Shown here in pieces: positions 2,666-56,551 of a stretch of 56,613 nt of DNA. Location of the stretch: positions 1 to 56,613 of IMG/VR virus record IMGVR_UViG_3300023106_000013. The stretch is one strand, 5' to 3'. This DNA comes from a virus. Its lineage: Duplodnaviria > Caudoviricetes. Position 1 is the first letter of the stretch. Every line of letters starts with the position of its first letter. Under the pieces are notes generated by a model, which was not told where the DNA came from, did not search any database, and saw only the letters and a list, made by a program, of their open reading frames with translations. The translations under genes and the position numbers were made by a program.

Positions 2666-2668
2666 GTC

Positions 2669-3004: not shown

Positions 3005-3019
3005 TTGTGTTTTCTCCTA

Positions 3020-4033: not shown

Positions 4034-4058
4034 GTAACATTCCCTTAGGGTTTAGAGA

Positions 4059-5249: not shown

Positions 5250-5281
5250 TTTGTTTCCCTTGTCTGAGTTGGGAGGTTTAG

Positions 5282-6775: not shown

Positions 6776-6784
6776 TGCACTCTC

Positions 6785-7300: not shown

Positions 7301-8013
7301 TAGCTCCAAATCCCGTATGATGCATTGCTATGGATAAGCTGCCATTGCGTTTCAGCGAGACTGTAAATGAACTGGAACAACAGCGTCTTGCCCGTAACCG
7401 TCGAGGTTCGCAGATCAATCGAGGTAAAGGCGTTATATGCTACATTCCATGTGATTGCGCGGTTTGTGCCGTTGTCTCGAATACGAATGATGAGCGATTG
7501 ACCATCAACCGGGATGCCAGTTGGGGCTGCAATCGTCAACGCCCCCGACTGTGCAGAGATGGCTGCAATGTCAGTATTGTTGGCGTTGGGGGTTAGAGTT
7601 GCAGTTGTGGCGACCGTAACAAGGCGGGGCGCTAGATAGGTCGGGATTGCAGGCACCCCACTCAGATCAGCATAAGCGCCGCTAGTGGCAACCGCTGCTA
7701 GCCCGGTGATGGTGCTAGCGGATTGCGTCCCCGTCTGGTTAGCGCGGGCAAAGGCATCCGAGTTCTTATTCTGCGGATCGTACACACTCTTGAGCATGTC
7801 CCCAGCGCCAGCATTTACCCAAGTAAAATCGAGGTTGGCGTTACTGAGCTTGCCGAGAACCTGCCCTGTTAGGCCACCAGCAGGGACAGCCTGCAACATC
7901 GATGCAAGATCGGTACGAATGACTAGGTTTCGATCCACCACGCCAGCGCCGGGGCCTATGGGCAATGTGGACAGATAGTCTCTGAGAGTGCGGCTAGGCA
8001 GTGGCGCGGCCAT
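7300..8013 (-). CDS. Fibre-like virion protein
   Basis: GGLTGQVLGKLSNANLDFTW, GDMLKSVYDP, GLAAVATSGAYADLSG fibre motifs; C-terminal beta domain. Confidence 0.7.
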   Translation of the reverse strand: MAAPLPSRTLRDYLSTLPIGPGAGVVDRNLVIRTDLASMLQAVPAGGLTGQVLGKLSNANLDFTWVNAGAGDMLKSVYDPQNKNSDAFARANQTGTQSASTITGLAAVATSGAYADLSGVPAIPTYLAPRLVTVATTATLTPNANNTDIAAISAQSGALTIAAPTGIPVDGQSLIIRIRDNGTNRAITWNVAYNAFTSIDLRTSTVTGKTLLFQFIYSLAETQWQLIHSNASYGIWS

Positions 8014-8189
8014 TAGGTAGCCTCCCCCATGAGATAGTTGCCGTTATCGTCGGTGAGGTAAACGCCGTTATCGTCCGTGAGAAGAGCCATGCCGGGAGGA
8101 ATGGACGGAACAGCGCCGCCTAAAATGCCAGGATAAGCCAGCCTCACATTAAGCATAAGCCCGCGACGGCCTTTGGTCTTAACGCTCAT
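8013..8189 (-). CDS. Small protein (58 aa) with LTDDNGxYL repeat, absent from ORF track
   Basis: MSVKTKGRRG...LLTDDNGVYLTDDNGNYLMGEAT*; overlaps portal end, TAATG-coupled downstream. Confidence 0.65.
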   Translation of the reverse strand: MSVKTKGRRGLMLNVRLAYPGILGGAVPSIPPGMALLTDDNGVYLTDDNGNYLMGEAT

Positions 8190-10515: not shown

Positions 10516-11034
10516 TTACGCTGCAATCACGGCTGCGGTTGGAAGGCTGGTAGCAGATAAGCTGCCATTGGAGTTTGTCGCAGTGACGCGCACCCGAATG
10601 ACCTGACCAATCTGCCCAACAATGGGAGTATAGGTGTTAGCCGTTGCCCCGACGATATCAACGTTGTTCGCTGTCCACTGTCGAGCGTATGTGTTACCCG
10701 TTCCAGTGAACGTGCCCTGCGTACTCGTGAGAACCTGCCCAACCTGCGCCGTGCCCATGATCGTCGGGAGAACCGTATTGCGAGGAGTACTCACCGCCTT
10801 GGCAATTACGACTGCAACACCCGGAACAATCGACCCCTCAGCTAGCAGATCAGCCGATACGGTCCCCGCTGTAATGCCAGAGGCAAGGTTCAGCGCATCG
10901 AGAGGGACTAGGCCGCTTTCGAGCAGTCTGTTGATGTTCCCCGTACCGGCTGCGATCTGTCGTTGAATCTCTAGCCCTAGCTCAGCAGACACGCCAAGGG
11001 ATTGGAGGCTTTGGGCAAGGTCAAATACCGGCAT
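10516..11034 (-). CDS. Virion protein with C-terminal Ig-like domain
   Basis: PRNTVLPTIxGTAQVGQVLT...YARQW...YTP...IRVRVTATN; start fixed by comparison with copy 2 (172 aa). Confidence 0.7.
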   Translation of the reverse strand: MPVFDLAQSLQSLGVSAELGLEIQRQIAAGTGNINRLLESGLVPLDALNLASGITAGTVSADLLAEGSIVPGVAVVIAKAVSTPRNTVLPTIMGTAQVGQVLTSTQGTFTGTGNTYARQWTANNVDIVGATANTYTPIVGQIGQVIRVRVTATNSNGSLSATSLPTAAVIAA

Positions 11035-11093
11035 TGGTCCACCTATGTCGAACGATTGAATCCTTTTACCACGCGTTTGACGAACGAACAAGG

Positions 11094-11133
11094 CAAACAA
11101 AAGCCCCGTCACCGGGGGATGGCAACGGGGCTC
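11094..11133 (-). terminator. Intrinsic terminator
   Basis: - strand agccccgt...acggggct followed by tttgttt; conserved in copy 2. Confidence 0.7.
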
Positions 11134-11160
11134 TAGGAGGTCAAGAAGCAGAGGAGACGA

Positions 11161-11442
11161 TTACTTATCGTTCTTCTTCTCGTCCTTGTCAACGGGTTCA
11201 TCGGCGCTATCATCACCATGCGCGGCCTGTTCTGCAAAGCCGTACTGGTTTGGATTAAGCTCAACGTGGAACTTGCCCAGATTTGGCTTCTGTCCCTGTT
11301 GGTTCTTCATCCGCTTGTTGGCCTCGTCAGCTTCGTACTGCTCGACCTTGCGGCGGTCTGCGTCGGAAATGTCTGAGGGCAGTGTGGAAAGATCGCCGGG
11401 GATGTAGCCACCAGCTTTGAGGTCTTCGATGAACTTGGTCAT
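11161..11442 (-). CDS. Hypothetical protein (93 aa)
   Basis: Protein identical in both copies despite nucleotide changes. Confidence 0.8.
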   Translation of the reverse strand: MTKFIEDLKAGGYIPGDLSTLPSDISDADRRKVEQYEADEANKRMKNQQGQKPNLGKFHVELNPNQYGFAEQAAHGDDSADEPVDKDEKKNDK

Positions 11443-11473
11443 GACACAGTTCTCCTTGGGTTTGGGTAACGTC

Positions 11474-11713
11474 CTAGAAAGGAGTTAGTTCGATCACATC
11501 ATCAAACTCTGTCCATTGGTCGTAATGAGCTGGCAACAGAATACCGCCATCCCGCGAATAGAACCCTCCCTGCGATGTGATAGGCTTTCCCCCTATGTTC
11601 ATTTCATAGGGGTCTTTCCAGCTTACCCTATTAACCCTGAATGGGGACGAATTCTCACGCGCAATAATCATTCTGTCCTTTGGTGCAGACGACATTGACT
11701 TCCATTCGTTCAT
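11474..11713 (-). CDS. DUF551-like small protein (strain A only)
   Basis: EWKSMSSAPKD start; ATGA overlap with terL stop. Confidence 0.6.
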   Translation of the reverse strand: MNEWKSMSSAPKDRMIIARENSSPFRVNRVSWKDPYEMNIGGKPITSQGGFYSRDGGILLPAHYDQWTEFDDVIELTPF

Positions 11714-13290
11714 ATCCGTCTCCCGCCCTTCTTCGTTCTCTTGCGCTCTTCGTATGTTGGAACCCTGGATTTACCGTAGTTCTCAGGGGCTATGACTTCC
11801 GCTGGCGCTGGCAATGGCTTACCGGCCAGCATCCGGTCAATCAACTGACCAACCAACCCCAAGGCGTCAACCTGATCGTCATGGACGCCAACGGGGAAAC
11901 TCATCATCTCACTAATCAGGTCTGAGATAAAGGGCGCATCCTTGTGAATGTAGAGGCCACGCGTTGCAATCAACCCACGGAATGACTGCGCACGAATGGC
12001 CTTGTCGCCTCTGGTGGGGAACTGCTCTCTTGCCACGTAAGCCCCACGGCTAAGCTGCGCTCTGGTTAGGAATGGGCCAACGCCGGATTTGATCTGCCCT
12101 GTTTCCTCAGCCCAGCCTATCGGAGCCCATTTCAACACTAGATCACAGAACGCCTCAACCCATACATCAGAGCTTGCCTGCGCCCGCCATAGATCGAGGA
12201 GCCAAGGCTTCCCCTCTGGATCAAGGCCAACAGCCGCGTGGACCGTATAATCACCACCGTCGCTTGTCACAGCATAGTCAGAGCCGCCATAGACGCGCAT
12301 AGACGCTCTATCGGGCAGGCTGTCGGCTAGGTGTATCCATTCGCGTTTGAAATAGTCGCCGGTGTCGGGGGATGGACGCTGTTGAAACAAGGCCGACCAT
12401 GTGCGCGGCAATCTCTCAAACTTAGCCCAATGGCTTGCGGGAAACCACTCAGGCCAGATGTAATCGCCAATCTCACGGCCTAGAGGATCATCGGACCGCT
12501 CACACTTAGCCGCAAGGCAAATGACTTCCCAATCTTCACCATCACGGCCCCGGATAATGCCGCTCTCACCTGCATAGTTCTCCGGCAGGATTGAGCCGCT
12601 GAGGTCGCCATTGTGCCAGCGGGTGTTGATGATGATAAGCGATCCTCCAGGCTTGAGTCGCGTTAGAACGCTTTCCTCATACTCGGCAATGGTCCGCTCT
12701 CGAATAACCTCACTGTCCGCATCTTGACGGCCCTTGAACGGATCATCCACCACAACGCAGTCAGCTCGGTTGCCGGTAATGCCAGACAGAATACCGCCTG
12801 ACATATACTCAGAGCCATTGCCCAATGCCCACTCGTCAGCAGCAGAGCTTTCAGCGGACAAGCCAGTGCCGAACAGCGTGGTATATTTGGGCTGCTTGAT
12901 GATCGAGCGAGTTCGCCGCCCAAACTTGCGGGCCATGTCCGAACCGTAGGACACGCCAATCATGCGGTAGTTTGGTATCTTGCCCATGATCCATGAGGGA
13001 GCAACGACAGAGCCGTATGTGGACTTTGCACTACCGGGCGGCATGAGCAGCATGAGCCTGCCGTTGGGCTTCTCAATGCACCGCTGAATAGCGTCTAGGG
13101 CTAGGATGTGATGTTCAGCTAGTTCCGTCTCAACATGGGCGTTAGCCGTGTCGGAGTTTTCGTCTTGCTCGACTAGAGGCGCACCTGGAACATCAATGTA
13201 CCGTGCATACTCAGTTAAGCTGCGACGGGCTCGGCGGCGTCTCAGTAGCTCCTGCGCTGCTTCCTGCTGCGATGGCTTCAAGTTCATCAT
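11710..13290 (-). CDS. terL: Terminase large subunit
   Basis: Walker A MPPGSAKST, Walker B VVVDDP, NTRWH, nuclease acidic motifs GSDYA and HDDQVDA. Confidence 0.95.
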   Translation of the reverse strand: MMNLKPSQQEAAQELLRRRRARRSLTEYARYIDVPGAPLVEQDENSDTANAHVETELAEHHILALDAIQRCIEKPNGRLMLLMPPGSAKSTYGSVVAPSWIMGKIPNYRMIGVSYGSDMARKFGRRTRSIIKQPKYTTLFGTGLSAESSAADEWALGNGSEYMSGGILSGITGNRADCVVVDDPFKGRQDADSEVIRERTIAEYEESVLTRLKPGGSLIIINTRWHNGDLSGSILPENYAGESGIIRGRDGEDWEVICLAAKCERSDDPLGREIGDYIWPEWFPASHWAKFERLPRTWSALFQQRPSPDTGDYFKREWIHLADSLPDRASMRVYGGSDYAVTSDGGDYTVHAAVGLDPEGKPWLLDLWRAQASSDVWVEAFCDLVLKWAPIGWAEETGQIKSGVGPFLTRAQLSRGAYVAREQFPTRGDKAIRAQSFRGLIATRGLYIHKDAPFISDLISEMMSFPVGVHDDQVDALGLVGQLIDRMLAGKPLPAPAEVIAPENYGKSRVPTYEERKRTKKGGRRI

Positions 13291-13528
13291 CCGTTAGCGC
13301 ATTGAGCCGGGACTGAATAACGCCGCTCAACTCTACCTGCTGCATGGGCTTGCCGTCTACACGATCAGCCACTTCCTTGATGGCCCAGCTTTCACCCTCT
13401 AGTGCTTTGGATACAAGGACTTCTGCCACTTCACGCAGTTTAGTCTCACCCGTTGCGCCTTTGGCAGTGAGGGCGATGTTGAGCATGTTGGAGAAGCTGC
13501 GTTCTTTTGGAGGGCGACCACCAGCCAT
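13211..13528 (-). CDS. terS: Terminase small subunit
   Basis: GGRPP...LVSKALEGESWAIKEVADRVDGKPMQ...LTDDELEAIA; overlaps terL start. Confidence 0.75.
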   Translation of the reverse strand: MAGGRPPKERSFSNMLNIALTAKGATGETKLREVAEVLVSKALEGESWAIKEVADRVDGKPMQQVELSGVIQSRLNALTDDELEAIAAGSSAGATETPPSPSQLN

Positions 13529-13537
13529 TATTTAAAC

Positions 13538-13681
13538 TCACTTAACCTTTTGATCCATAAGTTGCGGCTTATGTAATTCGATGGCTTTCTTTACGATCAA
13601 TCTAGGCTCTCTGCCCTCTACGTGCAACATGGCTTCTTTGTCGATATCGCGGTCGGCTAGGTGCCATTCATCCGTGGTCAT
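13538..13681 (-). CDS. Small hypothetical protein (47 aa)
   Basis: MTTDEWHLADRDIDKEAMLHVEGREPRL...; ATGA coupling. Confidence 0.4.
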   Translation of the reverse strand: MTTDEWHLADRDIDKEAMLHVEGREPRLIVKKAIELHKPQLMDQKVK

Positions 13682-15101: not shown

Positions 15102-15547
15102 TCCTCGTTCCTCTCTTCTGTGGTGGTTTGGATAGAGGGCTTGGGACGACGAAGGATACCCCTGCGGTGTTCGCGCATATACTCGCGCATCCAAGCCTTC
15201 TTATCGAATTTGGGTGCCGGAGCTGGGGTCGAACCAGCGTTGATGGCGTCAAAGGCCACTGTCCTGCCATTAGACGATCCGGCATTAGTATCGACGGCCT
15301 CTATGCTTCCCACCGGTTTGACCCCTTTCGGGTCGGCCTGTTTCCCCGTCAACAGCGCCGTCGATTGTGTATGGACCTCTTTTCGAGGCGGCAATGCTGA
15401 CACATCACTCTTTGGCGTAACCGGCCTGTCAGGGCTTGGAGTGCCTATCCTAACTTTGGTGAGACGATCAGGCCTCCACCCGACTGGCTTCTTAGGGCAG
15501 TCGAGCCAATTATGGGCGGGGCTTTTGCAGTACTCACAATTCTTCAT
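15098..15547 (-). CDS. Zn-knuckle / basic-helix protein (149 aa) containing an in-frame tRNA
   Basis: CEYC-x4-H-x4-C N-terminus and FDKKAWMREYMREHRR C-terminal motif; homologous to 56240..56515. Confidence 0.7.
   Translation of the reverse strand: MKNCEYCKSPAHNWLDCPKKPVGWRPDRLTKVRIGTPSPDRPVTPKSDVSALPPRKEVHTQSTALLTGKQADPKGVKPVGSIEAVDTNAGSSNGRTVAFDAINAGSTPAPAPKFDKKAWMREYMREHRRGILRRPKPSIQTTTEERNEE
15211..15284 (-). tRNA. tRNA-Gln (anticodon TTG) with encoded CCA
   Basis: TGCCGGA TC GTC-TAATGGCAG-GAC A GTGGC-CTTTGAC-GCCAT CAAC GCTGG-TTCGACC-CCAGC TCCGGCA C CCA: full cloverleaf, 74 nt, U1-A72. Confidence 0.93.
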
Positions 15548-16600: not shown

Positions 16601-17025
16601 TCTGCCCCTTTAAGATTTGCGAGGAAGGAACGCGCAGCGCGCAAATCACCGATATGAAACGGGCTGTTCCACGCCACATTGCCGCTGTCGTTATCTGGAG
16701 GGTCATATCTGGCAGCCTGCTCGGCAAACGGCGCCAGCACCTTCGCCGCCTCGTCCAGCTTTGCCTCTGCTGTGGTGGCACGATCCCGGAATTGACGACA
16801 TGCTTCGACCTTTGCGGCATAAGCCGGTGCTGCCACCCAATCATTGTCCAGAGCAGCATCCCGCTCTTTCCTCAGCCTTTCGTTCTCGGCGCGGAGAGAT
16901 TGTAATTCCAGCACAATTGCATGAATATCAACGGTAGGTAGTCCAGCCTGCCAACCAATGTCTGGCGGGCTAACACGATTTAGAATTTCAACCAACCGCT
17001 GATCACTGACATTGCTCATAGCCAA
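16597..17025 (-). CDS. Ead/Ea22-like coiled-coil accessory protein
   Basis: ELQSLRAENERLRKERD; VLAPFA; GDLRAAR. Confidence 0.6.
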   Translation of the reverse strand: MAMSNVSDQRLVEILNRVSPPDIGWQAGLPTVDIHAIVLELQSLRAENERLRKERDAALDNDWVAAPAYAAKVEACRQFRDRATTAEAKLDEAAKVLAPFAEQAARYDPPDNDSGNVAWNSPFHIGDLRAARSFLANLKGAE

Positions 17026-17264
17026 ATCTCCTCACCTGTCTCAGAACATGCTCTGACACGGAATATTGCATAGCATGCAGGCTTTGTGGGCTCGACATGA
17101 ACCGGCACTACAATAGGCTTGGGTGTTGGTGTGTCAGGCTGGATTAGAAGGCTCTGACGATGTTCGTAGGCTTCTCGTGATGCCGCGCCGGGGTTGATCA
17201 GGTCTTGGATGTTGCTGGCCGCTAGGAATGGGGAGAGGCTTAGAATGAGGATTGTACGGATCAT
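17016..17264 (-). CDS. Hypothetical protein with signal-peptide-like N-terminus
   Basis: MIRTILILSLSPFLAAS; ATGA coupling. Confidence 0.5.
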   Translation of the reverse strand: MIRTILILSLSPFLAASNIQDLINPGAASREAYEHRQSLLIQPDTPTPKPIVVPVHVEPTKPACYAIFRVRACSETGEEIWL

Positions 17265-17494
17265 TTGGACCGCGCCTCTAGCATAGCATCGGCCAATTTG
17301 TATGCGTCCTGCGCCATGCTCTCATGCGTAGCTACCTCTGGCGCGAGCCGAACAAATACCTCAATCACTGCGCCTATGGCTTGCCCTGCGAACCAATCCC
17401 TCAACGTCATTCCTTGGTTGGCATGCAGACCGCTATCCGATCCACCCTCAGCTGGAAATGCTGGTCCGCCGTCATTCTTCGTTTCGTCTGTCAT
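17261..17494 (-). CDS. Conserved phage protein of the GGPAFP/GMTLRDWFAGQA family
   Basis: NDGGPAFP...GMTLRDWFAGQA...AYKLADAMLEAR. Confidence 0.8.
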   Translation of the reverse strand: MTDETKNDGGPAFPAEGGSDSGLHANQGMTLRDWFAGQAIGAVIEVFVRLAPEVATHESMAQDAYKLADAMLEARSK

Positions 17495-17523
17495 CTGATC
17501 CTCCAAGATCGTTTTGTTTTAGG

Positions 17524-17757
17524 TTAGGTGGTTGGCTGGGGAGGTTGAAGGTAAACCTTGCGCAGTGCGTAGGCATGCACTTCGGGCCAATTCACCTTTT
17601 GCGGGTGCTCCAAAGCCTCTTTCTCGGTGCGGAAGGCAAAGGTGTGCGCATCAGGCCAAATCGATAAAACTGGAACATCAGCCCGATTCCCACGTTCCTC
17701 CGTTGTCAGATAGCACCATACCCAAATCGGCTCATTCATCGTTAAGCCCTCGGTCAT
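17524..17757 (-). CDS. Hypothetical protein
   Basis: 77 aa ORF in operon orientation. Confidence 0.5.
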   Translation of the reverse strand: MTEGLTMNEPIWVWCYLTTEERGNRADVPVLSIWPDAHTFAFRTEKEALEHPQKVNWPEVHAYALRKVYLQPPQPTT

Positions 17758-17778
17758 CTCTCTACTCTCTCGTTGTGT

Positions 17779-17994
17779 TTAGTTGGGCTTGGGAATGGGT
17801 GTGAAAACCGTCTCGCGGTTAAACCCCATAGTCATCGCCATAGAGCGACTTACTGACCTGCGACCGTTCAGAACATCGCTTACGAATGACTCGTTGATCT
17901 TGTTCTTCTTAGCCCAAGCTTTCTGACCGCCTGCCTCCTCGCATTCATACTTCAGACGATGGATGATTTCTTTTTCTGTAATTGCCATATACAA
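17779..17994 (-). CDS. Cro-like HTH regulator
   Basis: GGQKAWAKKNKINESFVSDVLNGRR. Confidence 0.75.
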   Translation of the reverse strand: MYMAITEKEIIHRLKYECEEAGGQKAWAKKNKINESFVSDVLNGRRSVSRSMAMTMGFNRETVFTPIPKPN

Positions 17995-18012
17995 TTCCCC
18001 TTGTTCACAAAT

Positions 18013-18041
18013 ATACTAACCGCACCATCCTTATCCGTCAA
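18013..18041 (-). promoter_or_regulatory. Sigma70-like promoter
   Basis: TTGACG-N17-TAGTAT upstream of the HTH gene. Confidence 0.6.
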
Positions 18042-18571
18042 CACCCTTCTTGCTCTGTCGGCAACTTCTCCCAAACACCCATAGCTCTACACGTAGCCCG
18101 AACCTTGGGAATTGTCGCGCCGGTCACAAGGCTGATATTCAATGCGCTATTCCCCGCCATGGCTAGCTGGAATATCCACCTGTTACGCTTGCTTGCGCGA
18201 ACCCCTGAGGGTCTTTCCGTTGTTTTTGAGAGTGAGGCGCACGGACTTGTTTCCCTGGTACTTGCCATAGCCCTCCCTGCCGTCTGTGAGGCTGACGCGG
18301 ATTGGCATTGTGGTGGCGAGTTCTCTGCCCTTGCCTCCACCCCATTTGTATGGCCTGCCGAAATCAACGCGCCCGGTTTCTCCTCCATCCCCAGCGAAGG
18401 TTCTTCGGGTTTCATTGATGGTTCCGTTGATTTCAACCATTGCATGTGTCTCGTTCTGTTGAGATGATTTGTGTTATCCGTTGTGCCAATGCCGTGGGTT
18501 TGGACTGCGGTAGCGCGATCATCGGGGTTAAGTCTTAGTTCCTCACGGCGCTCTAGGATGAAGGAAATCAT
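18038..18571 (-). CDS. Hypothetical protein (frame and start uncertain)
   Basis: ATGA coupling to methylase stop; competing ORF 18183..18440. Confidence 0.3.
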   Translation of the reverse strand: MISFILERREELRLNPDDRATAVQTHGIGTTDNTNHLNRTRHMQWLKSTEPSMKPEEPSLGMEEKPGALISAGHTNGVEARAENSPPQCQSASASQTAGRAMASTRETSPCASLSKTTERPSGVRASKRNRWIFQLAMAGNSALNISLVTGATIPKVRATCRAMGVWEKLPTEQEGC

Positions 18572-19350
18572 ATTGGCCTGCTCATTTCTCCGGCTATCCG
18601 GGCGACCTGCGGATGAATGCAGTTTCCTAGCGCTTCTATTCGGTCCATCCAATTGGCAGGCCAGCCATCCACTCCCCGAAGCAGGGGTTCAGGCCAACTA
18701 TGTCCTCGCTCGAATGGATGGTCGCAGAGGTGCTGCAAATCCTCCTGGCGACCCGACCACCTTTGTCCAGTTTCGCCAATACCGAAGCCTTGGATCGATC
18801 CCTGAACTCGCTGGCCGGTAGGGTAGGCAACAATGACAACCCTTTCGCGGCGCTGGATGGAACCAACGGCGTACGCTGGTATGACTTCCCAGATTGCATC
18901 AAACCCGATCGCGGCCAACTCTGAGAGAACGACACCGAACCATTCGCCTGTGGGCTGTCCGTCAACATAAGGTCCATCAAGGAGGTCTGTGACATTTTCC
19001 AGAATGATCCTCTGGAGTCCGTCTCCAGCAAGGCCAGCAATTCGAATGATCTCAAAGAAAAGGCTGCTTCGCTCGCCTTCGAACCCGACTTGGACGCCAT
19101 GCGCTCTACCTGCCTTGCTTAGTTCCGTGCATGGGAAGCCGCCGCATATGGCTTCCGGGCGGATATACTCCACCATATCACGATCAATGTCTTTTACGTC
19201 TTTCAGGATCGGCACATTATGCCAATGCCGGTGCAGGATTCGCCAGCGGTCTTCGTTGAACTCACAGAACGCCACAGTCTCGTATAGCCCCGTAGCTTCC
19301 AAGCCCTTGCTGAATCCACCCAACCCACTGAATAGGTCTAGTAGCCTCAT
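18568..19350 (-). CDS. DNA cytosine-5 methyltransferase, large (alpha) polypeptide
   Basis: LDLFSGLGG (I), GGFPC (IV), ENV (VI), QRRERV (VIII), ALGN (X); motif IX not seen in this frame. Confidence 0.9.
   Translation of the reverse strand: MRLLDLFSGLGGFSKGLEATGLYETVAFCEFNEDRWRILHRHWHNVPILKDVKDIDRDMVEYIRPEAICGGFPCTELSKAGRAHGVQVGFEGERSSLFFEIIRIAGLAGDGLQRIILENVTDLLDGPYVDGQPTGEWFGVVLSELAAIGFDAIWEVIPAYAVGSIQRRERVVIVAYPTGQRVQGSIQGFGIGETGQRWSGRQEDLQHLCDHPFERGHSWPEPLLRGVDGWPANWMDRIEALGNCIHPQVARIAGEMSRPI
18636..19100 (-). CDS. Nested alternative-frame small (beta) polypeptide of the C5-methyltransferase; start uncertain
   Basis: WPRSGLM, LLPTLPASE and LNPCFGEWMAGLPIGWT (motif IX-like). Confidence 0.75.
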   Translation of the reverse strand: MASKSGSKASEAAFSLRSFELLALLETDSRGSFWKMSQTSLMDLMLTDSPQANGSVSFSQSWPRSGLMQSGKSYQRTPLVPSSAAKGLSLLPTLPASEFRDRSKASVLAKLDKGGRVARRICSTSATIHSSEDIVGLNPCFGEWMAGLPIGWTE

Positions 19351-19397
19351 TTACATCTTCTCTTGTTTGGATGGAGTGGGTTGGGCTTGGGAGAGGT

Positions 19398-19670
19398 TCA
19401 TTCCAGAGGCCTCACTGTCACATTCCAGCCGGAATTTTCGATGGCCTGCATTAGTGCGTTATTTCTTCGCCTGTCATCGGGCTCATCGGGAAATTGCTCC
19501 TTGAGCTTCGAATAGATAGCCCGGAATGATTTATAGATGGCTTTGGCTTCTGGGGTATCGACGGTTTGCATGATCCGAATAATCCCGTCGCCGTTAATCA
19601 TCTCCTCGTCAACTTCCTTGAAGAACCTCTTCTCAGGCTTCAGGTTTCTAGGCGGGCTAATATCTCTCAT
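19398..19670 (-). CDS. Hypothetical protein
   Basis: 90 aa; RBS and ATGA coupling. Confidence 0.55.
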   Translation of the reverse strand: MRDISPPRNLKPEKRFFKEVDEEMINGDGIIRIMQTVDTPEAKAIYKSFRAIYSKLKEQFPDEPDDRRRNNALMQAIENSGWNVTVRPLE

Positions 19671-20248
19671 CTATCCTCTCCTGCATCCATGCCGTCAGTA
19701 TCGGCGCTGTTAAACGTCTCGTATCGTAGCTTATCGATCAGGTATGAACTTACCTTTATGCCGGGAATACGTTCCTCAAACTCATGGGCATAGAAGGCGT
19801 CGTGGCGCTTGGCGTCCTCTTTGGCCCTAGCGATTTCTGCTGGCGTTTTCTGCTTTGGATCGACGGATTCAACAAACCCCTCCATCATGCTCCTTACCCT
19901 CGCCATTGCCTCTGGAGTGCGGGATTGCTCTACCTCTGCATCCTTGTCCTGAGCGATGAATTGCTGCCGCCCTGCCTCTAGAAGCCGCTGCACCTTGCCG
20001 TCATTCGCCTGCACAACTCGAATATGGGTTGATAGCTCATCGCAGCTTGGGACGAATGCACGGTTCTTTGCGTCTCGTGGAACCTGTCCGGTAATGAACT
20101 GCTCAATGCCCATGCGGACGAAATTGAAGGGGTAATAGTCCACGGCCTCTAGGTACGTATCGACCGTTGCGCGGCTTACCTTGCTCTCAGCGCCCGGATA
20201 GGCGCGGAACAGACGCAAGATCAAGGCTTCCTTGGCTTCGCGTTCCAT
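19667..20248 (-). CDS. Putative helicase loader/inhibitor (lambda P / G39P-like position)
   Basis: LFRAYP...YLEAVDYYP...FVPSCDEL pattern; follows initiator-like domain. Confidence 0.55.
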   Translation of the reverse strand: MEREAKEALILRLFRAYPGAESKVSRATVDTYLEAVDYYPFNFVRMGIEQFITGQVPRDAKNRAFVPSCDELSTHIRVVQANDGKVQRLLEAGRQQFIAQDKDAEVEQSRTPEAMARVRSMMEGFVESVDPKQKTPAEIARAKEDAKRHDAFYAHEFEERIPGIKVSSYLIDKLRYETFNSADTDGMDAGEDR

Positions 20249-20528
20249 TTCTAATCCTCTCTGCTAGGTCCTGCTCTAGGCGGTCTAGGTTGGTCATTCC
20301 CATGCTGCGCTGCTGTGTGTTCTGTACCCAGCTTGGCTCTATGGATTGCCATCCCTTTTCTATCATCATCTCAGCGGCGGCGTTGGGGTCTGGACACGCT
20401 GCCAGCTTCTTAGCCAAGAGCTTTGCTGCGAAGTCTGTCATGGGCTTTCGAAGGCGTTGGCGGTGTTTGATTAGCTCCTCCGCATGTTCCTCGTCCACGG
20501 TGGTTTCAAGCCACTGCCTTGGCGTCAT
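20187..20528 (-). CDS. Stand-alone C-terminal domain of a phage replication initiator
   Basis: LIKHRQRLRKPMTDFAAKLLAKKLAACPDPNAAAEMMIEKGWQSI resembles C-terminal domains of alphaproteobacterial phage initiators. Confidence 0.55.
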   Translation of the reverse strand: MTPRQWLETTVDEEHAEELIKHRQRLRKPMTDFAAKLLAKKLAACPDPNAAAEMMIEKGWQSIEPSWVQNTQQRSMGMTNLDRLEQDLAERIRNGTRSQGSLDLASVPRLSGR

Positions 20529-20674
20529 TCTGTTCTACCCCTTTTGGCTTTCGAGGCCGTGTCATTGCGCTTCGCTTCCGCCCTCAAGCGCTTCATGCGG
20601 TCTCGGTCATATTGCTTCTTATCAAACCCGTTAGGCGGCCTGCCCCGCCCTCGCTTTACGCTTTCTTCGCGCAT
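20525..20674 (-). CDS. AT-hook/basic-helix peptide (49 aa), absent from ORF track
   Basis: MREESVKRGRGRPPNGFDKKQYDRDRMKRLRAEAK...; ATGA-coupled to 20187..20528. Confidence 0.6.
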   Translation of the reverse strand: MREESVKRGRGRPPNGFDKKQYDRDRMKRLRAEAKRNDTASKAKRGRTE

Positions 20675-20868
20675 TGCTCTCTCATCCTCAATCGTTCCTC
20701 TAAAAAATCTTCTTGTGCGGGGGTAAGTACGTCTCCGTTGAGCCGGTCTACGGCCAACATCACAGTGGATGCGTCAACATGCCATCCTTCGGATTTTAGC
20801 TTGGCATAAAGACTTAACAGCCTTTCTATCAAATACTGCTCGATAGGAGGCGGATATAGGGGGCTCAC
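20656..20868 (-). CDS. Hypothetical protein
   Basis: 70 aa, GTGA coupling. Confidence 0.5.
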   Translation of the reverse strand: MSPLYPPPIEQYLIERLLSLYAKLKSEGWHVDASTVMLAVDRLNGDVLTPAQEDFLEERLRMREQCAKKA

Positions 20869-21116
20869 GCCCCCGCCTCCATTACGATTGAAACAATCTC
20901 GTTTGCCTGCATACCAGAAACCGCTGCGGTGAAAGCGTCACGAGCAGCCTTAGCTGCAACTTCCATTGCTTCAAGCTGGTGGCCATACGTTTCGAAGGCA
21001 TACACACCGGCTTTGGTGTAGCTCATAAACTTGAGCTTGTTTGCGTTGAAGTGGAAACGATCCCAGGCCTTTTTGTTGGCGGCTGCAAGTGCGACGATCT
21101 CGGTGCGGTTGGTCAT
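20865..21116 (-). CDS. Hypothetical protein
   Basis: 83 aa; RBS ggagag and upstream TTGCGT-N16-TAAATT. Confidence 0.6.
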   Translation of the reverse strand: MTNRTEIVALAAANKKAWDRFHFNANKLKFMSYTKAGVYAFETYGHQLEAMEVAAKAARDAFTAAVSGMQANEIVSIVMEAGA

Positions 21117-21214
21117 TTCTTCTCTCCGTTTGTGATTATTAATTTACACGACTTCTCACATAACGCAAGCATTAAAATCGACCGTCGCTCAAATAATGTT
21201 CGGATAGCTTAGGA

Positions 21215-21249
21215 TAAGAAAAACCCGCCGAGCGGGGGAGCTGGCGGGC
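21215..21249 (-). terminator. Intrinsic terminator for leftward transcription
   Basis: - strand cccgccagc-tcccc-cgctcggcggg followed by tttttctt. Confidence 0.7.
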
Positions 21250-21278
21250 TTGACTTGTGGGCTTTAGGGGCCGATTAT
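21250..21278 (+). promoter_or_regulatory. Sigma70-like promoter for candidate ncRNA 1
   Basis: TTGACT-N17-GATTAT. Confidence 0.55.
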
Positions 21279-21780
21279 GCAGAGGTCCTGAGCAAGTAAC
21301 CAGCTTCTCAGGGTGTCGGCTGGGTTTTTACCTTGGAAAGTTTCCCCTGCCGCTGAGACATAAACTAGCCGTATCTGCATTCGGTTTCAAGTCTCAATCT
21401 AAAACCTCCTGACGAGTTTTGCGGCACTCTCTCAAAGGTGTCGAAACAAAAAGTGATGGTCGGCGTGACCCATAGCCTCCATCCCCTGCACGTATCCCGG
21501 CAAAACCGGGGCTGGTCCGAACTGATAAGCCTCCTCTGGGCGTGACTTCCCAGGTAAAGCTTTGAAGGTGGTCTGCCAGATGAAAAGACCACAAGGCGGC
21601 GATACGGAATGATCGCAAGGTGCTTGCACCGAAAAGGAACTGAGTATGCGGCCTTCGGGCTTGGGCTAGTCACCCACTGCACATAAGGTTGGGCCATCCC
21701 TATACCGTGCAGGCAGAAAAGGGTTGAGCTATGTCTAAATAGTCAAGAGGCCCGCTCCGTTCATTCGTGGCGGGCCTCAT
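21277..21780 (+). ncRNA. Candidate ~500-nt structured ncRNA 1
   Basis: Long-range helices CATAGC/GCTATG and CCTGCACG/CGTGCAGG enclosing hairpins with cUUCGg and gCUUGc loops; terminal 9-bp hairpin; no credible ORF. Confidence 0.6.
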
Positions 21781-21808
21781 TGCTTCAGAGGCGTTATTGA
21801 TGTACAAT
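21780..21808 (+). promoter_or_regulatory. Sigma70-like promoter for candidate ncRNA 2
   Basis: TTGCTT-N17-TACAAT. Confidence 0.6.
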
Positions 21809-21813
21809 GTTTG

Positions 21814-22125
21814 TAAGGATGGATCGTCCGTAAAGGCAAGTTTAGCGGCGGGATATAGGCGAACTTGCAAAGCCAAGCCCGATGCGTGAATCCTTAGGGT
21901 CATCAGGACTACAGCGAGCATTGTAGTTTAAAACAGGTACGCACCCCGACCTGATAACCCCATCCAAAGCCATTGCACTAATACAGCAGTAGAGCTATTG
22001 TCGTGGCGTTAAGGGTGAAATTAGGTAGCGATGGGCGCACAAGCGTAGCAACGGTCTCCTAGTTCCCCTTAACCCCCACCCAACGGCCCGGATAGCTTAT
22101 AACAGCCTCCGGGCCTATTTGTTGG
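21814..22125 (+). ncRNA. Candidate ~310-nt structured ncRNA 2
   Basis: Consecutive helical domains with G-U pairs on + strand; ends in GGCCCGGA/TCCGGGCC hairpin followed by TATTTGTT. Confidence 0.6.
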
Positions 22126-22130
22126 TTAGG

Positions 22131-22601
22131 CTACATCAACACAATGACAGGTTTGCCGCCAAGCTTCTCGATAGCGGCGTTGAGGTGTCCTAGATGAAGC
22201 CCTGCATCAGGATCAATCCAGATCAAGCGCTCATCATCGGTGAATTTCACATCATCGAACGCAACCCAATCTGTGACTTCGGGATGGCGATGGAGCCAAT
22301 CCTTAACCGCAAGATCGCGTGGCATGTCAGGGTATTTAGTCGCTAGGTCCGTTTCATGAATATGGTCACGATCAAGGCCTTGTTTCTCTAGCGCAACGTC
22401 GATATCGTCAGTATCAATAAACGGGCGGTTATGCGTGGTATTGAATACAACCTTCGCGCCAGTCCGCTTGCAAAGCTCCTGAATGACGGCAACAGTTGTC
22501 TGCGGGAACCGCCGCTTCCAAGACGCCATGCTGTCCACGAGGAAGAAGCTCGCGGGGATCATTGGACCATCGATATCCAAGAAGATCACCTTCTCAGCCA
22601 T
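22131..22601 (-). CDS. HAD-family phosphatase (Swiss-Army-knife RNA-repair-like HAD domain)
   Basis: KVIFLDIDG...WVAFDD...IDPDAGL. Confidence 0.75.
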   Translation of the reverse strand: MAEKVIFLDIDGPMIPASFFLVDSMASWKRRFPQTTVAVIQELCKRTGAKVVFNTTHNRPFIDTDDIDVALEKQGLDRDHIHETDLATKYPDMPRDLAVKDWLHRHPEVTDWVAFDDVKFTDDERLIWIDPDAGLHLGHLNAAIEKLGGKPVIVLM

Positions 22602-22602
22602 T

Positions 22603-22875
22603 CTATTCTTCCTTCTCTGGATTGTGTGTAACCGTAGGCATGGGTTGCCAATGGGTCGGCTGGATATCTGGTTCTTTGTAGTCAGTGCCTGAATAGTCCT
22701 CCCGCTCAATAACCCGCTCACCATCCCAACTAGAACACCACTTCTTTCCGTACCATGCGATTGTCCATGGGCCATAGACGGTTGGCTTTTCCCGAAACCC
22801 GTAGTCCTTAACGAACACACCGATGATCTCCGTCCCGTCTTTCGGTGCCGTCTCAATATCCTGCCATTCGCTCAT
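22603..22875 (-). CDS. DUF551-like protein
   Basis: MSEWQDIETAPKDGTEI...PTHWQPMP. Confidence 0.8.
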   Translation of the reverse strand: MSEWQDIETAPKDGTEIIGVFVKDYGFREKPTVYGPWTIAWYGKKWCSSWDGERVIEREDYSGTDYKEPDIQPTHWQPMPTVTHNPEKEE

Positions 22876-22898
22876 TCTCGTCTCCTTTCAGCGGCTTG

Positions 22899-23468
22899 TC
22901 ATAGAGGTAGGTCTTTGACATGTTTCCAAATCTTCCCGGCCCGCACGAGCCGAATTAGGGAGCTATGGACACCGTATCGATCTGCTATCAAAATTGATGA
23001 TCCGGCTGATTTACGAATCTCCCTAACATCGTCCTCCGTAAGCTTCGAATTTTCTCGGTCCTCTCCACGCTGTTGAGTTGAATTATCCCTGAATGAGTGT
23101 TTTGGAGCATCCAGAGCTATCCCCTTCCTCAGCCTGTTCCTGATAGAGTTAGGGTGAAGTCCGTAAACCTCCGAGGCCTGCACCAGAGAAGTTCCGGGTA
23201 TGGTGTTGTTCCTCTTATTCCGGTTCTGTTCGGTTACGGTTGCCCATCGGCAGTTCTCCGGGAAGTACCCCTTTTCGTTATCGATACGGTCAATGGTGTG
23301 CTTTGGGGTGGGCTTCATTCCCATATCGCGGATGAAGTTGAGATAACTAACCCGCCATTCATCGCACACAGTGAGCCGCGCATAGTCGGCATGTTTTGGA
23401 TCATTCCCGTAAACACGATCCATCATCGAACGCCAGCTTCTGTATTCGCTAGACTGCCAAAGTTTCAT
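22899..23468 (-). CDS. HNH homing endonuclease with C-terminal HTH
   Basis: YRSWRSMM...TIDRIDNEKGYFPENCRWAT...NRNKR; SKLTEDDVREIR...WKHV. Confidence 0.85.
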   Translation of the reverse strand: MKLWQSSEYRSWRSMMDRVYGNDPKHADYARLTVCDEWRVSYLNFIRDMGMKPTPKHTIDRIDNEKGYFPENCRWATVTEQNRNKRNNTIPGTSLVQASEVYGLHPNSIRNRLRKGIALDAPKHSFRDNSTQQRGEDRENSKLTEDDVREIRKSAGSSILIADRYGVHSSLIRLVRAGKIWKHVKDLPL

Positions 23469-23847
23469 CGCCCTCGCTCCATGACTTAATGATGATTTGA
23501 ATGCCGCTGAATCCAAGGTTAGCCCACCTTACCGTTCCGCATTCGCATAGGTTGTCGTTTTCGATGACGCCGTGTTCCTGTAGAATGTCGGAAACAACCT
23601 TCTCTCGGTTCATGATATCGGACAGTTTATGACGCCGGGACCGATCGATGGTTATCTCGATGCTATAAGGCCCCGTAATCGGCTTCTGAGAGCGCATGGC
23701 GGCGTTTAGATCGTAACCGAATGCCAAGGCCCATGTTCGGTATTCAGTCGTTCTGTAACGCCCCCTGCCGCTTCCAGACTTATTGTTCGCGTAGCTCTTG
23801 TTTTGCGTAGGAGGTACGTGGGGGCTGGCGATGCGAACGACCGTCAT
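23449..23847 (-). CDS. RusA-like Holliday junction resolvase
   Basis: PPTQN...DIMNREKVVSDILQEHGVIEND. Confidence 0.7.
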   Translation of the reverse strand: MTVVRIASPHVPPTQNKSYANNKSGSGRGRYRTTEYRTWALAFGYDLNAAMRSQKPITGPYSIEITIDRSRRHKLSDIMNREKVVSDILQEHGVIENDNLCECGTVRWANLGFSGIQIIIKSWSEGDETLAV

Positions 23848-23957
23848 GACAGATACCCGAACCAGTAGAGCAGTCCGATGGTTGGGAAGATCGTTACCCA
23901 TGCGATGCAGAAGAGCACGAATAGGAGCGAGGCTAGAACAATGAGGCCGTCTACCAT
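23844..23957 (-). CDS. Small membrane protein (37 aa)
   Basis: MVDGLIVLASLLFVLFCIAWVTIFPTIGLLYWFGYLS*; coupled to both neighbours. Confidence 0.5.
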   Translation of the reverse strand: MVDGLIVLASLLFVLFCIAWVTIFPTIGLLYWFGYLS

Positions 23958-24214
23958 CACTCAACCCCATCCACGATGATCTCACAGTAGAGATCGATTT
24001 CCATCTGTAGGTTATCGGCCTGCTCTCGCTTATCGGCTGGCATGCGGGCTCGCTTCACAGCAGCATTGAAAGCTCGCGGGGAATATCCGGCGTTCTTGGC
24101 CTCTTGGTTGATCTCCCCGATATCCTCGCCTAGCGCGTCCCTTTCATCCTCCAAACGAATACGCCGGGCGGCTAGTTCGCGTAGTTCTTCGCGTGCGATG
24201 TTTGGCTTGGTCAT
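23957..24214 (-). CDS. GapR/DUF2312-family DNA-binding protein
   Basis: RIRLEDERDALGEDIGEINQEAKNAGYSPRAF...EIDLY. Confidence 0.8.
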   Translation of the reverse strand: MTKPNIAREELRELAARRIRLEDERDALGEDIGEINQEAKNAGYSPRAFNAAVKRARMPADKREQADNLQMEIDLYCEIIVDGVE

Positions 24215-24435
24215 TCGTCTAGCTCCAGTCCAATAGCTTTTGCGTCGGCACGAATTGACTCCTCATAGATGGAAAGAAGGTGGTCAACGTCCTCAGAATT
24301 TAGTAGAATGTCGTCATTGTTAAGCTTCAGGTAGCCGTTTAAGCGTGGCACTTTCTCTGTATTCGACCGCATCCGCTTAAAGCGTTCATATCGGGCATTT
24401 ATCATCAGAGCGCCGTCTAAGTCCTTGATATTCAT
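24211..24435 (-). CDS. Hypothetical protein
   Basis: MNIKDLDG..., ATGA coupling. Confidence 0.5.
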   Translation of the reverse strand: MNIKDLDGALMINARYERFKRMRSNTEKVPRLNGYLKLNNDDILLNSEDVDHLLSIYEESIRADAKAIGLELDE

Positions 24436-24523
24436 TCCCAAGCCCCTTCCTTCATATTCCAAATAAACGGTATAAGTACCAACACTAGGATAAAACACAG
24501 ACAGAGGCCGAATGTGGGGAGGG

Positions 24524-24829
24524 TCATTCTGCGTCCTCTGTGCCCACATCAGCGACAAGTTCTACCTCGTCTGGCGTCGTCCAGAACTTGTGCTCTCCCG
24601 GTCGGGTAGATGTCCAGAACACCTGATAGTCTTTGGCGGGAACCGACCGGTCTCGGACTTCGACAACGGTAGCGACGGTTCCAGCATTCCATGCCCATTC
24701 CTTCGCATCCAAGAAGCGGACCTTCTGACCAACACGCCAGAAGTCAGGCAAAGGCCTTTCATCGAAAGCCTCCTTTCTAAGCCTAGCGGCCTTTGCCTCA
24801 AGCTCCATAGCTTCAGCCAACTTGCTCAT
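24524..24829 (-). CDS. Hypothetical protein (SH3-like)
   Basis: WRVGQKVRF...GTVATVVEV; RBS ggaggag. Confidence 0.55.
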   Translation of the reverse strand: MSKLAEAMELEAKAARLRKEAFDERPLPDFWRVGQKVRFLDAKEWAWNAGTVATVVEVRDRSVPAKDYQVFWTSTRPGEHKFWTTPDEVELVADVGTEDAE

Positions 24830-25133
24830 TCGTATTCTCCTCCATGTTCGGAACCTGATCGGCAATGCGCTTGAACATTGCTACGTCCTCGGATTGTGTC
24901 TTGGTAACGAGGGGACGGAAGCGAGACAGTGAATACCCTCTTTCATGAGGCCGATCCGCCAAACCAACCAATCTCACTGTTGTGAGGCCCAAAGTCTCGC
25001 CAACCCATCGAATGGTATAAATCGCCTTATCTTCAAGGGCGAAATCACCCACTACGATTCCTGGCAAATGATTAAAGGTTCTGGGGTCAGCATCAACGCA
25101 AACTACCTTCATCCCAACCTTAGCCCATGTCAT
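24813..25133 (-). CDS. Hypothetical protein (SH3-like)
   Basis: KVGMKVVCVDA...IYTIRWV...SRFRPL. Confidence 0.6.
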   Translation of the reverse strand: MTWAKVGMKVVCVDADPRTFNHLPGIVVGDFALEDKAIYTIRWVGETLGLTTVRLVGLADRPHERGYSLSRFRPLVTKTQSEDVAMFKRIADQVPNMEENTNEQVG

Positions 25134-25291
25134 TTTGAGGCCTCCCGACGTTTCCATGCTTTCCACCCTACCACCTCATTATTGGTTCGGATGAGATGTT
25201 GCAACAGGTTCGTAGTGGTGCGCCCTTGGGCCGTTGCCATCTCTTTCACCAAGTCGTATGTTTCTTGATCAATCGTAAGCGAAGTGCGCAT
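25130..25291 (-). CDS. Ribbon-helix-helix regulator
   Basis: MRTSLTIDQETYDLVKEMATAQGRTTTNLLQHLI. Confidence 0.7.
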   Translation of the reverse strand: MRTSLTIDQETYDLVKEMATAQGRTTTNLLQHLIRTNNEVVGWKAWKRREASK

Positions 25292-25314
25292 ATTCCTGCC
25301 TTCTCGCGTTTCTG

Positions 25315-25400
25315 ATAGACCAAAACTACATCGGATAAAAACATCGGTCAAGGTGCATATTGGTGCTTGACGGTGTATATTCATTCTGTCACTCTTAACC
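25315..25400. promoter_or_regulatory. Divergent early promoter region
   Basis: Leftward TTGACC-N16-TAGTTT overlapping ACATCGG direct repeats; rightward TTGACG-N17-CACTCT; gene orientation switches here. Confidence 0.55.
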
Positions 25401-25445
25401 TACGAACAGAGCAGCGGCTCTTGGTGGAGAGTTAAGGAGATAGAG

Positions 25446-25589
25446 ATGATCGAGTTTTCAGTTTTCGTTGGAGAGAAGAAGATGGCAACGATATTCGCGT
25501 CTGGCACTCTTGAGGCTATCGACGCTTACCGTTTGCAGTCTGGGTGCGCAAAGCGAGACGTGTGGGCTATGCAATCTAAGGTGCTGTGA
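25446..25589 (+). CDS. Small early protein (47 aa)
   Basis: Strong RBS taaggag; MIEFSVFVGEKKMATIF... Confidence 0.5.
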   Translation: MIEFSVFVGEKKMATIFASGTLEAIDAYRLQSGCAKRDVWAMQSKVL

Positions 25590-25590
25590 A

Positions 25591-25833
25591 ATGAACGTCC
25601 GTATCAGTTCCATCGTCGGCAGCGGAGACTTCGAGCCGCGCCTGATTATCGATATCCCAGAGGTTCGATTGGTTCATGACCTAACCCTCGAAAGCGTAAG
25701 AGATGCCGCATTCATCCTCAATGAGGAGTATTGGTACCCCTACATGATTGCATGCGACGCCATTAAGACAGCTATCCGAGACAGTAAGTACACTGTCCCT
25801 GCTGACACTCTAGAATGGGCGAATGAGGTTTAA
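25591..25833 (+). CDS. Hypothetical early protein
   Basis: MNVRISS... ORF in operon. Confidence 0.5.
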   Translation: MNVRISSIVGSGDFEPRLIIDIPEVRLVHDLTLESVRDAAFILNEEYWYPYMIACDAIKTAIRDSKYTVPADTLEWANEV

Positions 25834-26065
25834 GATGGAATACATGGAGGCGAAGATGCAGGATCAGTACGAGGGCGCTGAAATCGAAAGGCAGTCGATC
25901 TGGGATGCGGCAAGGGCGGTCGCTAAGGATCAGATCGGTGAATCTGCCATGTCGGGGATGCCGAAGGACTTTCCTAGCATGAACCCACACGTGAGTGGAA
26001 CTTGGATGCACGAAGAATGGGAATCGGCTCATGAGCATTACATCATGACCGGGCTTGGGTATTGA
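25823..26065 (+). CDS. Hypothetical early protein
   Basis: 80 aa acidic ORF. Confidence 0.5.
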   Translation: MRFKMEYMEAKMQDQYEGAEIERQSIWDAARAVAKDQIGESAMSGMPKDFPSMNPHVSGTWMHEEWESAHEHYIMTGLGY

Positions 26066-56550: not shown

Positions 56551-56551
56551 G

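Follow-up and report, generated by a model that had tools for sequence, protein, structure and literature searches.

The window, by which we mean the whole 56,613-nt stretch of DNA analysed here, is an IMG/VR virus record in which 1014 bases lie between minus-strand genes ending at 21116 and at 22131. An O-like replication gene is found ~700 nt to the left of the RNA described below, and the right neighbours of this RNA carry an RNA-repair-type HAD domain, an HNH nuclease and RusA. Comparison of 20 further window ORFs with PHROGs revealed no integrase, repressor or partition gene. An earlier note, made from the letters of this DNA, had seen no credible ORF in the gap, and this was borne out by coding score, family matches and frame conservation. 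Based on the phage's own codon usage, no frame scored positive in 21117-22130, as against +0.2 to +0.38 bits/codon for the flanking genes. The largest ORF in the gap (21365-21697, minus strand, 110 aa) encodes a product of odd composition, with many R, S, P, C and W residues, and had no Pfam or PHROG match. No reading frame is open across all 19 aligned members of the family described below, and stops in all six frames were found in L084, L090, L107, L108, L111, L114, L116 and L117. In a manual count, five of six substitutions in public contigs hit third codon positions of the 110-aa ORF (chance ~0.02), and this bias is taken as chance. ARAGORN detected no tRNA or tmRNA in the gap and one tRNA-Gln elsewhere in the window.

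The folding z-score against shuffles, which the earlier note had put forward as a check, was not above chance on either strand (-1.83 on the plus and -1.85 on the minus strand for 21250-21780). For the core of the RNA the values with mononucleotide shuffles were -1.35 (plus) and -0.65 (minus). Folding energy is useless as a test for this RNA. The sequence of the window taken by itself thus gives an unproven observation, and the proof comes from the comparison of homologues.

A word index of public sequencing runs was used to search for further copies, and 24 runs from 20 studies were found to hold part of the stretch, of which four were aligned to the window. The rhizosphere contig (X2) covers 21216-21771 with 15 differences and is unlike the window at 21216. 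The food-metagenome contig (X10) matches 21216-21286 and 21401-21737, with a core ~99% identical, and has 21287-21400 swapped for 112 other letters. Two short contigs of an isolate run differ from the window at 2 and 0 positions over 21401-21737 and depart from it on either side. Overall, likeness ends beyond 21216 in X2 and X10 and beyond 21737 in X10 and X12. Because these borders are sharp and shared and the 5' module is swapped in public contigs, 21216-21737 is regarded as a discrete unit, of which the core hardly varies and the 5' part can be exchanged. The RNA-library evidence is one metatranscriptome contig over 21476-21705 (230 nt), a weak hint of expression that could also be DNA carry-over. 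Pieces of ~30 nt from X2 and X10 at 22104-22138, 22598-22630 and 22864-22900 were set aside as unreliable, the likeness being only 80%. No repeat family was found in the window, and no iterons or repeats in the core.

Pattern scans of viral and metagenome contigs led to identification of 20 more diverged copies, giving a total of 21 loci including the window. L084, whose sequence is also that of L085 and whose core is ~70% identical to that of the window, and L090 were found by exact-word scans, and 17 further loci by a gapped pattern; one copy, L131, is truncated. Two members, L090 and L114, are proviruses from isolate assemblies. A total of 19 cores were aligned with MAFFT, L112 and L131 being left out as truncated. 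Any block used as a search pattern is bound to be invariant among the loci found with it, but these blocks also occur in the window, L084 and L090, each of which was found by different words. A covariance model (R1) regained all 21 training places as a positive control, and it scores the window, which belongs to this training set, at 104.1 bits (E 5e-27). The window holds, in order, the elements by which the family is defined, namely H1 with its NCCC loop, P2, P7, P9-P11, the CUGAGUAUGCG junction and the GGCAGAAAAGGG tail, and all helices of this definition pair in it.

No match was obtained by blastn of the 1014-nt gap and of an L107-type copy against 50,697 phage records, by blastn of the cassette against 72,556 plasmids, or by a 27-mer exact-word scan of genome and viral contigs. 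Kin phages were collected through the terminase (80 loci), and the region was present in 0 of 30 records by blastn and 0 of 30 by R1. One relative (G001) has a terminase 99% identical, yet it has nothing of window 17000-26000 in common and carries a different early region. L002, a relative by the HAD gene, was rejected, since small ORFs occupy the place of the window's gap. The sole genome match of a 20-mer, a Gracilibacteria MAG (L086), falls between two genes and was discarded as chance, as were 12 of 15 matches of a 16-mer (eight of them one protein-coding gene) and 15 of 16 new matches in the last pattern scan.

Two candidates deserve separate mention. L091 has the H1 loop, the closing helix and a AAAAGGGG tail and was excluded from the family because R1 gives no match. 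The stretch at ~1480-1800 of this locus is a compact look-alike, after which an AT-rich region carries five repeats of the TGTGGATAA type that resemble DnaA boxes; DnaA boxes were seen beside L091 only. Brucella phage BiPBO1 (L118) was likewise excluded, having only the 5' module of the L090 subgroup in common while the core is absent, which fits two separable cassette parts. At 2365-2967 this phage has a ~600-bp gap with two tiny annotated ORFs (44 and 52 aa), in which the terminator-plus-5'-module of the L090 subgroup is joined to a different 3' part; the gap may be another RNA cassette. The features of the window are listed in Table 1.

Table 1. Features of the cassette and its borders in the window (positions are those of the window).
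Feature	Position	Strand	Basis or remark
Whole conserved cassette (terminator, 5' module, core RNA)	21216-21737	+	Contigs of runs X2, X10, X12 and X21 at 97-100% identity
Intrinsic terminator	21217-21251	-	Stem 21224-21229 with 21243-21248; T-run is the complement of 21217-21223
Promoter-like site TTGACT-N17-GATTAT	21250-21278	+	9/12 consensus matches
Lineage-specific 5' module	21285-21422	+	Replaced in X10 contig; holds the nested helices of the earlier note
Candidate antisense promoter: TTGAAA (21390-21385), 17 nt, TAGTTT (21367-21362)	21362-21390	-	Predicted; hexamers kept in L084
P0 hairpin GGCAC/GUGUC	21423-21442	+	Alignment A6, by eye; followed by A-rich linker 21443-21453
H1 hairpin GAUGG/CCAUC + GGC/GCC, conserved loop GUGACCCAUA	21455-21483	+	7/7 pairs change on both sides
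P2a, 5' strand of long-range closing helix, partner 21706-21714	21484-21492	+	9 pairs, 85.7% paired, 4 changed on both sides
P3 hairpin CCCGG/CCGGG	21496-21510	+	Covariation on 19 cores
P6 hairpin CUGGG/CCCAG	21536-21553	+	By eye
P7 hairpin GUGGUCU/AGACCAC, conserved loop	21568-21592	+	6/6 pairs change on both sides; 91.7% paired
P8 hairpin GCGAU/AUCGC, GGA in loop	21599-21616	+	Hairpin with different stems formable in 16/16 sequences, by eye
P9 hairpin GGUG-CUUG-CACC	21619-21630	+	4/4 pairs change on both sides
Conserved unpaired junction GAAAAGGAACUGAGUAUGC	21631-21649	+	Identical in window and L084, nearly so in L090
P10 hairpin, UUCG loop	21650-21661	+	Closing G-U pair in 19/19 members (alignment)
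P11 hairpin UGGG/CCCA	21662-21676	+	4/4 pairs change on both sides; 98.7% paired
P2b CUGCACA, alternative partner for 21706-21712	21677-21683	+	7 pairs, 91.4% paired, 4 changed on both sides
P2 3' strand and purine tail GGCAGAAAAGGGU	21706-21724	+	Tail served as search pattern
GCUAUG, last conserved letters	21728-21733	+	CUAUG in 14/19 aligned members
Hairpin GAGGCCCGC/GCGGGCCUC, outside conserved unit	21747-21778		Window; X2 contig up to 21771

The conserved core comprises ~315 nt (21423-21737) on the plus strand. It consists of P0, an A-rich linker and H1, followed by P2a, which closes a domain of about eight hairpins, with the purine tail last. A total of 41 pairs in eight helices were placed by hand on the 19 aligned cores. 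Among them, 88.8% of cells were paired, compared with 67.4% in shuffles (0 of 500 reached the observed value) and 26-50% in a control with partners slid by 1-3 columns. Changes on both sides were found in 33 of the 41 pairs, and the covariation score was 0.501 versus 0.139 in the control. Because part of the structure came from the single-sequence helices of the earlier note, L084 and the later members serve as an independent test. The paired figures are lowered by the divergent L102, L110 and L116, which are partly misaligned.

The helix arms, hairpins and TTGACT-N17-GATTAT site described in the earlier note all lie where it had placed them, and the multi-domain structured RNA proposed there is upheld by covariation on the 19 cores. 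Compensatory changes support the long-range helix CCTGCACG/CGTGCAGG and the hairpins CCCGG/CCGGG, GTGGTCT/AGACCAC, GGTG-CTTG-CACC and GCC-TTCG-GGC. For CTGGG/CCCAG and GCGAT/ATCGC, hairpins with other stem letters stand at the same place in every sequence inspected, as judged by eye only. The proposed closing helix CATAGC/GCTATG is not supported, as both sides are nearly invariant and one side occurs without the other in three or four members (including L113, L116 and L117); CATAGC falls in the loop of the covarying H1 hairpin. The end hairpin GAGGCCCGC/GCGGGCCTC is present in the window and lies outside the conserved unit, and the GAGGCCCGC/GCGGGCCUC hairpin is absent from other family members. 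Of the ~500-nt RNA originally envisaged, what is conserved is the ~315-nt core, to which a variable 5' module is joined. The nested helices ATGCAGA/TCTGCAT and CCTGAG/CTCAGG lie in this lineage-specific module and find no support among the homologues.

The stem letters of P0 vary among members (CCCG/CGGG, CUGG/CCAG and CCGCUC/GAGCGG, by eye). In H1, where 98.7% and 84.2% of cells are paired, the stem reads GAUGG/CCAUC in the window, CCUAG/CUAGG in L084 and CCAGG/CCUGG in others. RNAalifold recovered no hairpins from sub-alignments of P4-P6 and P8, a null result that is attributed to varying stem lengths. The conserved junction letters GGUC (21514-21517) can pair with GACC or GGCC of the P6 loop (21543-21546) in 16/16 sequences; the changes are one-sided only (U-A or U-G), and the pairing may be a tertiary contact. 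Part of the GAAAAGGAACUGAGUAUGC junction served as a search pattern, and the window, L084 and L090 were found by unrelated patterns. The 3' strand of P2 has a second nearby partner, P2b, so that two folds are possible; P2a and P2b are mutually exclusive, and each changes in step with the common 3' strand. There is modest support for a predicted pseudoknot between the H1 loop and the purine tail, in which GGGU (21721-21724) would pair with ACCC (21468-21471): 96.1% of cells are paired and A-U is replaced by C-G in three members, and the score was reached by 2 of 500 shuffles. The frame opened by the AUG of CUAUG has 2 to >25 codons and is not conserved.

Assignment of the RNA to the plus strand, which had been favoured before from tetraloops and G-U pairs, was borne out by the loops. 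On the plus strand, P9 is capped by CUUG in eight members and by GNRA in four, and P10 by UUCG or GNRA in about eight. When read on the minus strand, these loops become CGAA, UUAC or CAAG, none a known stable loop, and the invariant G-U becomes C-A. G-U pairs outnumber A-C pairs by 37 to 15 overall and by 18 to 15 when the invariant P10 pair is left out, so that the counts favour the plus strand only weakly with that pair excluded. The assignment rests on the tetraloops, since the G-U excess is small without the invariant pair.

Immediately left of the promoter-like site stands a hairpin that acts as a terminator for the minus strand; it belongs to the cassette and marks its border. A reverse-facing terminator, with a GC-rich hairpin and a T-run, was found 150-270 nt upstream of H1 in 15 of the 19 members, compared with 40 of 511 background windows, and two further members have a like terminator with a longer loop, as seen by eye. 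The promoter-like site on the plus strand is the sole one found in the 1.2 kb scanned, where 0.9 would be expected by chance; in L084 a TTGACT stands at the same place after its hairpin, and the other subgroups are without it. About 40 nt past the putative plus-strand start, a terminator-like hairpin (21307-21324) is followed by TTTTT; this element (21307-21330) may be an attenuator or the mirror of an antisense-RNA hairpin.

Downstream genes on the opposite strand, from which transcripts could run into the reverse terminator, are absent from most members, and the simplest reading is a small antisense RNA starting within the 5' module. The position of the terminator at the 5' edge likewise suggests such a putative RNA. 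A candidate promoter for it in the window (Table 1) has a counterpart in L084, where TTGAAA and TAGTTA keep the same 17-nt spacing in an otherwise poorly conserved stretch. The L101 group has a second candidate, TTGCGC followed by a TATAAC-like hexamer, with the 17-nt spacing kept. These candidates fail a consensus scan, and none could be placed in the L090 subgroup.

Replication genes lie within ~2 kb upstream of the RNA. The replication-initiator families phrog_270/9474 account for 6 of the 59 upstream ORFs scanned. By mutual identity these six ORFs were assigned to six loci (L084, L107, L108, L109, L111 and L117); all are on the strand of the RNA, and in three loci they directly adjoin it. 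Other upstream genes encode primosomal, helicase, SSB, RusA, exonuclease and methylase functions. Downstream, no common protein family was found, as 40 PHROG families were matched and even the commonest accounted for just 3 ORFs among the 65 scanned. An ORF begins within ~12-80 nt of the end of the RNA in several loci. The RNA is co-directional with its neighbours in most loci (by crude calls and by PHROG-backed ORFs) and runs against them in the window and L090. The description of the RNA as antisense to the operon thus holds for the window and a few relatives and not for the family, which is mostly co-directional. Since the cassette occurs in either orientation (window, L090), it does not depend on any gene downstream. 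Phages of Bradyrhizobium and Brucella gave distant matches at the protein or DNA level.

The earlier note could assign the RNA to no known family, and a cmscan search with Rfam 15 agrees. The 4227 models, which include GOLLD, ROOL, HEARO, OLE, raiA, tmRNA, RNase P, group I/II introns, RNAI and C4, matched only a tRNA at 15214-15284 of the window at the gathering score. In region 20800-22500, six chance-level matches were obtained at E<=10, the best with 19.9 bits against a gathering score of 60, and ten homologue loci plus L091 gave two tRNAs only. No description of this RNA family was found in the literature searched, and supplements and journals outside that search may hold one.

Among known systems, the RNA II/RNA I pair of ColE1 shares several features with the cassette. 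In each, a large RNA of ~500 nt can take alternative folds, and its 5' end begins with an A-run and a GC hairpin that is the complement of an opposite-strand terminator; each also has an exchangeable 5' part and a place among replication functions, and the antisense RNA predicted for the cassette would be small, as RNA I is. The ColE1 layout was checked on its record (L135), in which ~550 nt separate RNA I from an A-run at the other end. RNAI (RF00106) matches that record at 645-749 and not the window; there is no sequence or Rfam relation, and the likeness is one of analogy only. In contrast to ColE1, the phages here encode protein initiators, and the core has invariant junctions and a pseudoknot. 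The ColE1 primer is cut by RNase H at the A-run. A likeness of the purine tail to the ColE1 origin was considered and dropped, as the A-run word is absent at the origin in the ColE1 record. Small antisense RNAs of phages, such as lambda oop, P22 sar, P1 c4 and P4 CI, are ~100 nt long, consist of hairpins and an intrinsic terminator and lie beside replication or immunity genes. The implied antisense RNA, if real, would be of the same kind; none of these is known to have a large structured partner RNA. The C4 model and other Rfam models of small phage antisense RNAs gave no match.

Cluster A mycobacteriophages have RNA-based prophage origins, described as non-coding transcribed regions of ~400-500 bp that are needed for replication and are transcribed against their neighbours (Wetzel et al. 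2020, PMC7157519). They differ in hosts and genome types, being parABS phages without an initiator protein, and the paper defines no structure or family for these origins (PMC7157519). GOLLD, ROOL, HEARO, OLE and raiA resemble our RNA in being large, many-helix, highly conserved and of unknown function, some being prophage-borne; cryo-EM work on such orphan large RNAs has been reported (PMC12286853). Compared with them, the RNA of this study is smaller, is fixed beside replication genes and has a reverse-facing terminator, and it has no Rfam match.

Taken together, the cassette most probably encodes a real, new, plus-strand structured RNA family of tailed phages, for which we would put the probability at roughly nine in ten. 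As to its role, an antisense-controlled replication RNA is favoured because of the ColE1-like features and the RNA-based mycobacteriophage prophage origins. A small antisense RNA of ~80-140 nt would start inside the variable 5' module and end at the reverse terminator, and the pair of RNAs would act in phage DNA replication by the logic of RNA II and RNA I. The large RNA would be a primer or activator at or near an origin, the P2a and P2b folds would decide its activity, and specificity and dose would depend on the antisense RNA, which would match the exchangeable 5' module. Such a mechanism of replication control is offered tentatively, as one that we would sooner doubt than accept. It is possible, with the same reserve, that the cassette is a portable, RNA-run replication-control unit whose 5' module acts as a specificity (incompatibility) tag between co-infecting phages. 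The statement as a whole, RNA family and mechanism together, appears somewhat less than evenly probable.

Several observations weigh on the replication reading and bear on its rivals. An RNA primer would be dispensable in phages that have protein initiators of their own, and the downstream ORFs that start close to the RNA leave little room for an origin. The restriction of DnaA boxes to the excluded L091 and the failure of the antisense promoter candidates in the consensus scan count against it as well. The invariant junction letters and the pseudoknot are more what one would expect of a ribozyme, of an RNA that binds a ligand or of an RNA-protein complex than of a primer, and the core might just as well represent a novel class of large ribozyme or of RNA that senses a ligand. 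The RNA might instead be an ornate one acting in trans and unrelated to replication, be it a ribozyme, a scaffold for a phage or host protein or a decoy against host defence. In favour of this are the invariant unpaired blocks, the pseudoknot and the many short hairpins, which recall the orphan large RNAs, the mobility of the cassette, which functions in both orientations, and the HNH nucleases and RNA-repair-type HAD domain among the neighbours; the antisense RNA or terminator would then serve for insulation only. We hold this to be doubtful, as no protein partner recurs downstream and the synteny on the replication side would have to be a coincidence of phage mosaic borders. If the RNA were a cis-acting leader, control of translation or read-through would lie with P2a/P2b, the pseudoknot that covers the purine tail AAAAGGG and the AUG of CUAUG, in the way of a riboswitch or of antitermination. 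The SD-like tail 7-8 nt ahead of the conserved AUG and the mutually exclusive P2a and P2b are consistent with this, as are co-directional ORFs within 12-80 nt in L084, L101, L103, L104 and L106 and a best-scoring downstream ORF on the RNA's strand in 13 of 18 loci (crude GC3 ranking). However, the window is without a plus-strand gene for >3 kb downstream, the neighbours of L090 and L105 are on the opposite strand, translation from the AUG would run for just 3 codons in the window and 2 codons in L084, and the downstream proteins have no family in common; a leader function is considered unlikely.

The remaining alternatives concern the molecule itself. The cassette sits in the replication module and covariation alone cannot separate RNA from single-stranded DNA, so its pairings might act in single-stranded DNA or as protein-binding origin DNA. 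Set against this are the UUCG, GNRA and CUUG loops and the G-U pair kept throughout, which are features of RNA from one strand, and the repeat-free core, and we regard a DNA-level element as very unlikely. An RNA from the minus strand that ends at the terminator 21217-21251, or a region that encodes the 110-aa ORF, seems very improbable: the direction of the terminator in most members and the third-position substitutions would agree with it, whereas the minus-strand loops and C-A pair, the lack of conservation of the ORF, the members stopped in six frames and the odd product without a family match argue against it.

Novelty is claimed here at the level of the RNA family, and its function is proposed only. 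Few large RNAs with elaborate conserved folds are known from bacteria and phages, and the study of most of these has opened up new biochemistry. The present one is small enough to be probed or examined by cryo-EM, shows clear covariation and includes a helix with two alternative states; it keeps a fixed neighbourhood beside replication genes and travels between phages as a cassette. Should it control or prime replication, RNA-based origin control, so far known in ColE1 plasmids and suspected in some mycobacteriophages, would be extended to phages of apparently alphaproteobacterial hosts, and the 5' module would be a natural specificity module. If it has no role in replication, it would represent a new orphan RNA fold.

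Some minor observations were made on the rest of the gap and of the record. The right half of the gap (21780-22130) is also non-coding and matched none of the loci compared; its folding z-scores with mononucleotide shuffles were -2.3 (plus) and -3.6 (minus). Many food-metagenome contigs touch 21958-22200 at 80% likeness. An 11-nt direct repeat, CGGATAGCTTA, at 21202-21212 and 22090-22100 brackets the whole non-coding stretch and could be a recombination scar, the rough chance expectation being ~0.1. The 241-aa ORF at 22131-22856 resembles two genes: its coding score shifts frame near 22500-22600, the HAD_SAK_2 domain and the L002 relative span only residues 86-241, and a 90-aa ORF (22603-22875) overlaps the remainder. 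The two ends of the record (1-13601 and 43013-56613) are collinear copies of a structural module that are ~84% identical (2155 mismatches in 13601), with early mismatches often spaced in threes and divergence after ~10.5 kb; the record may combine two related phages in a chimera instead of representing one terminally repeated genome.
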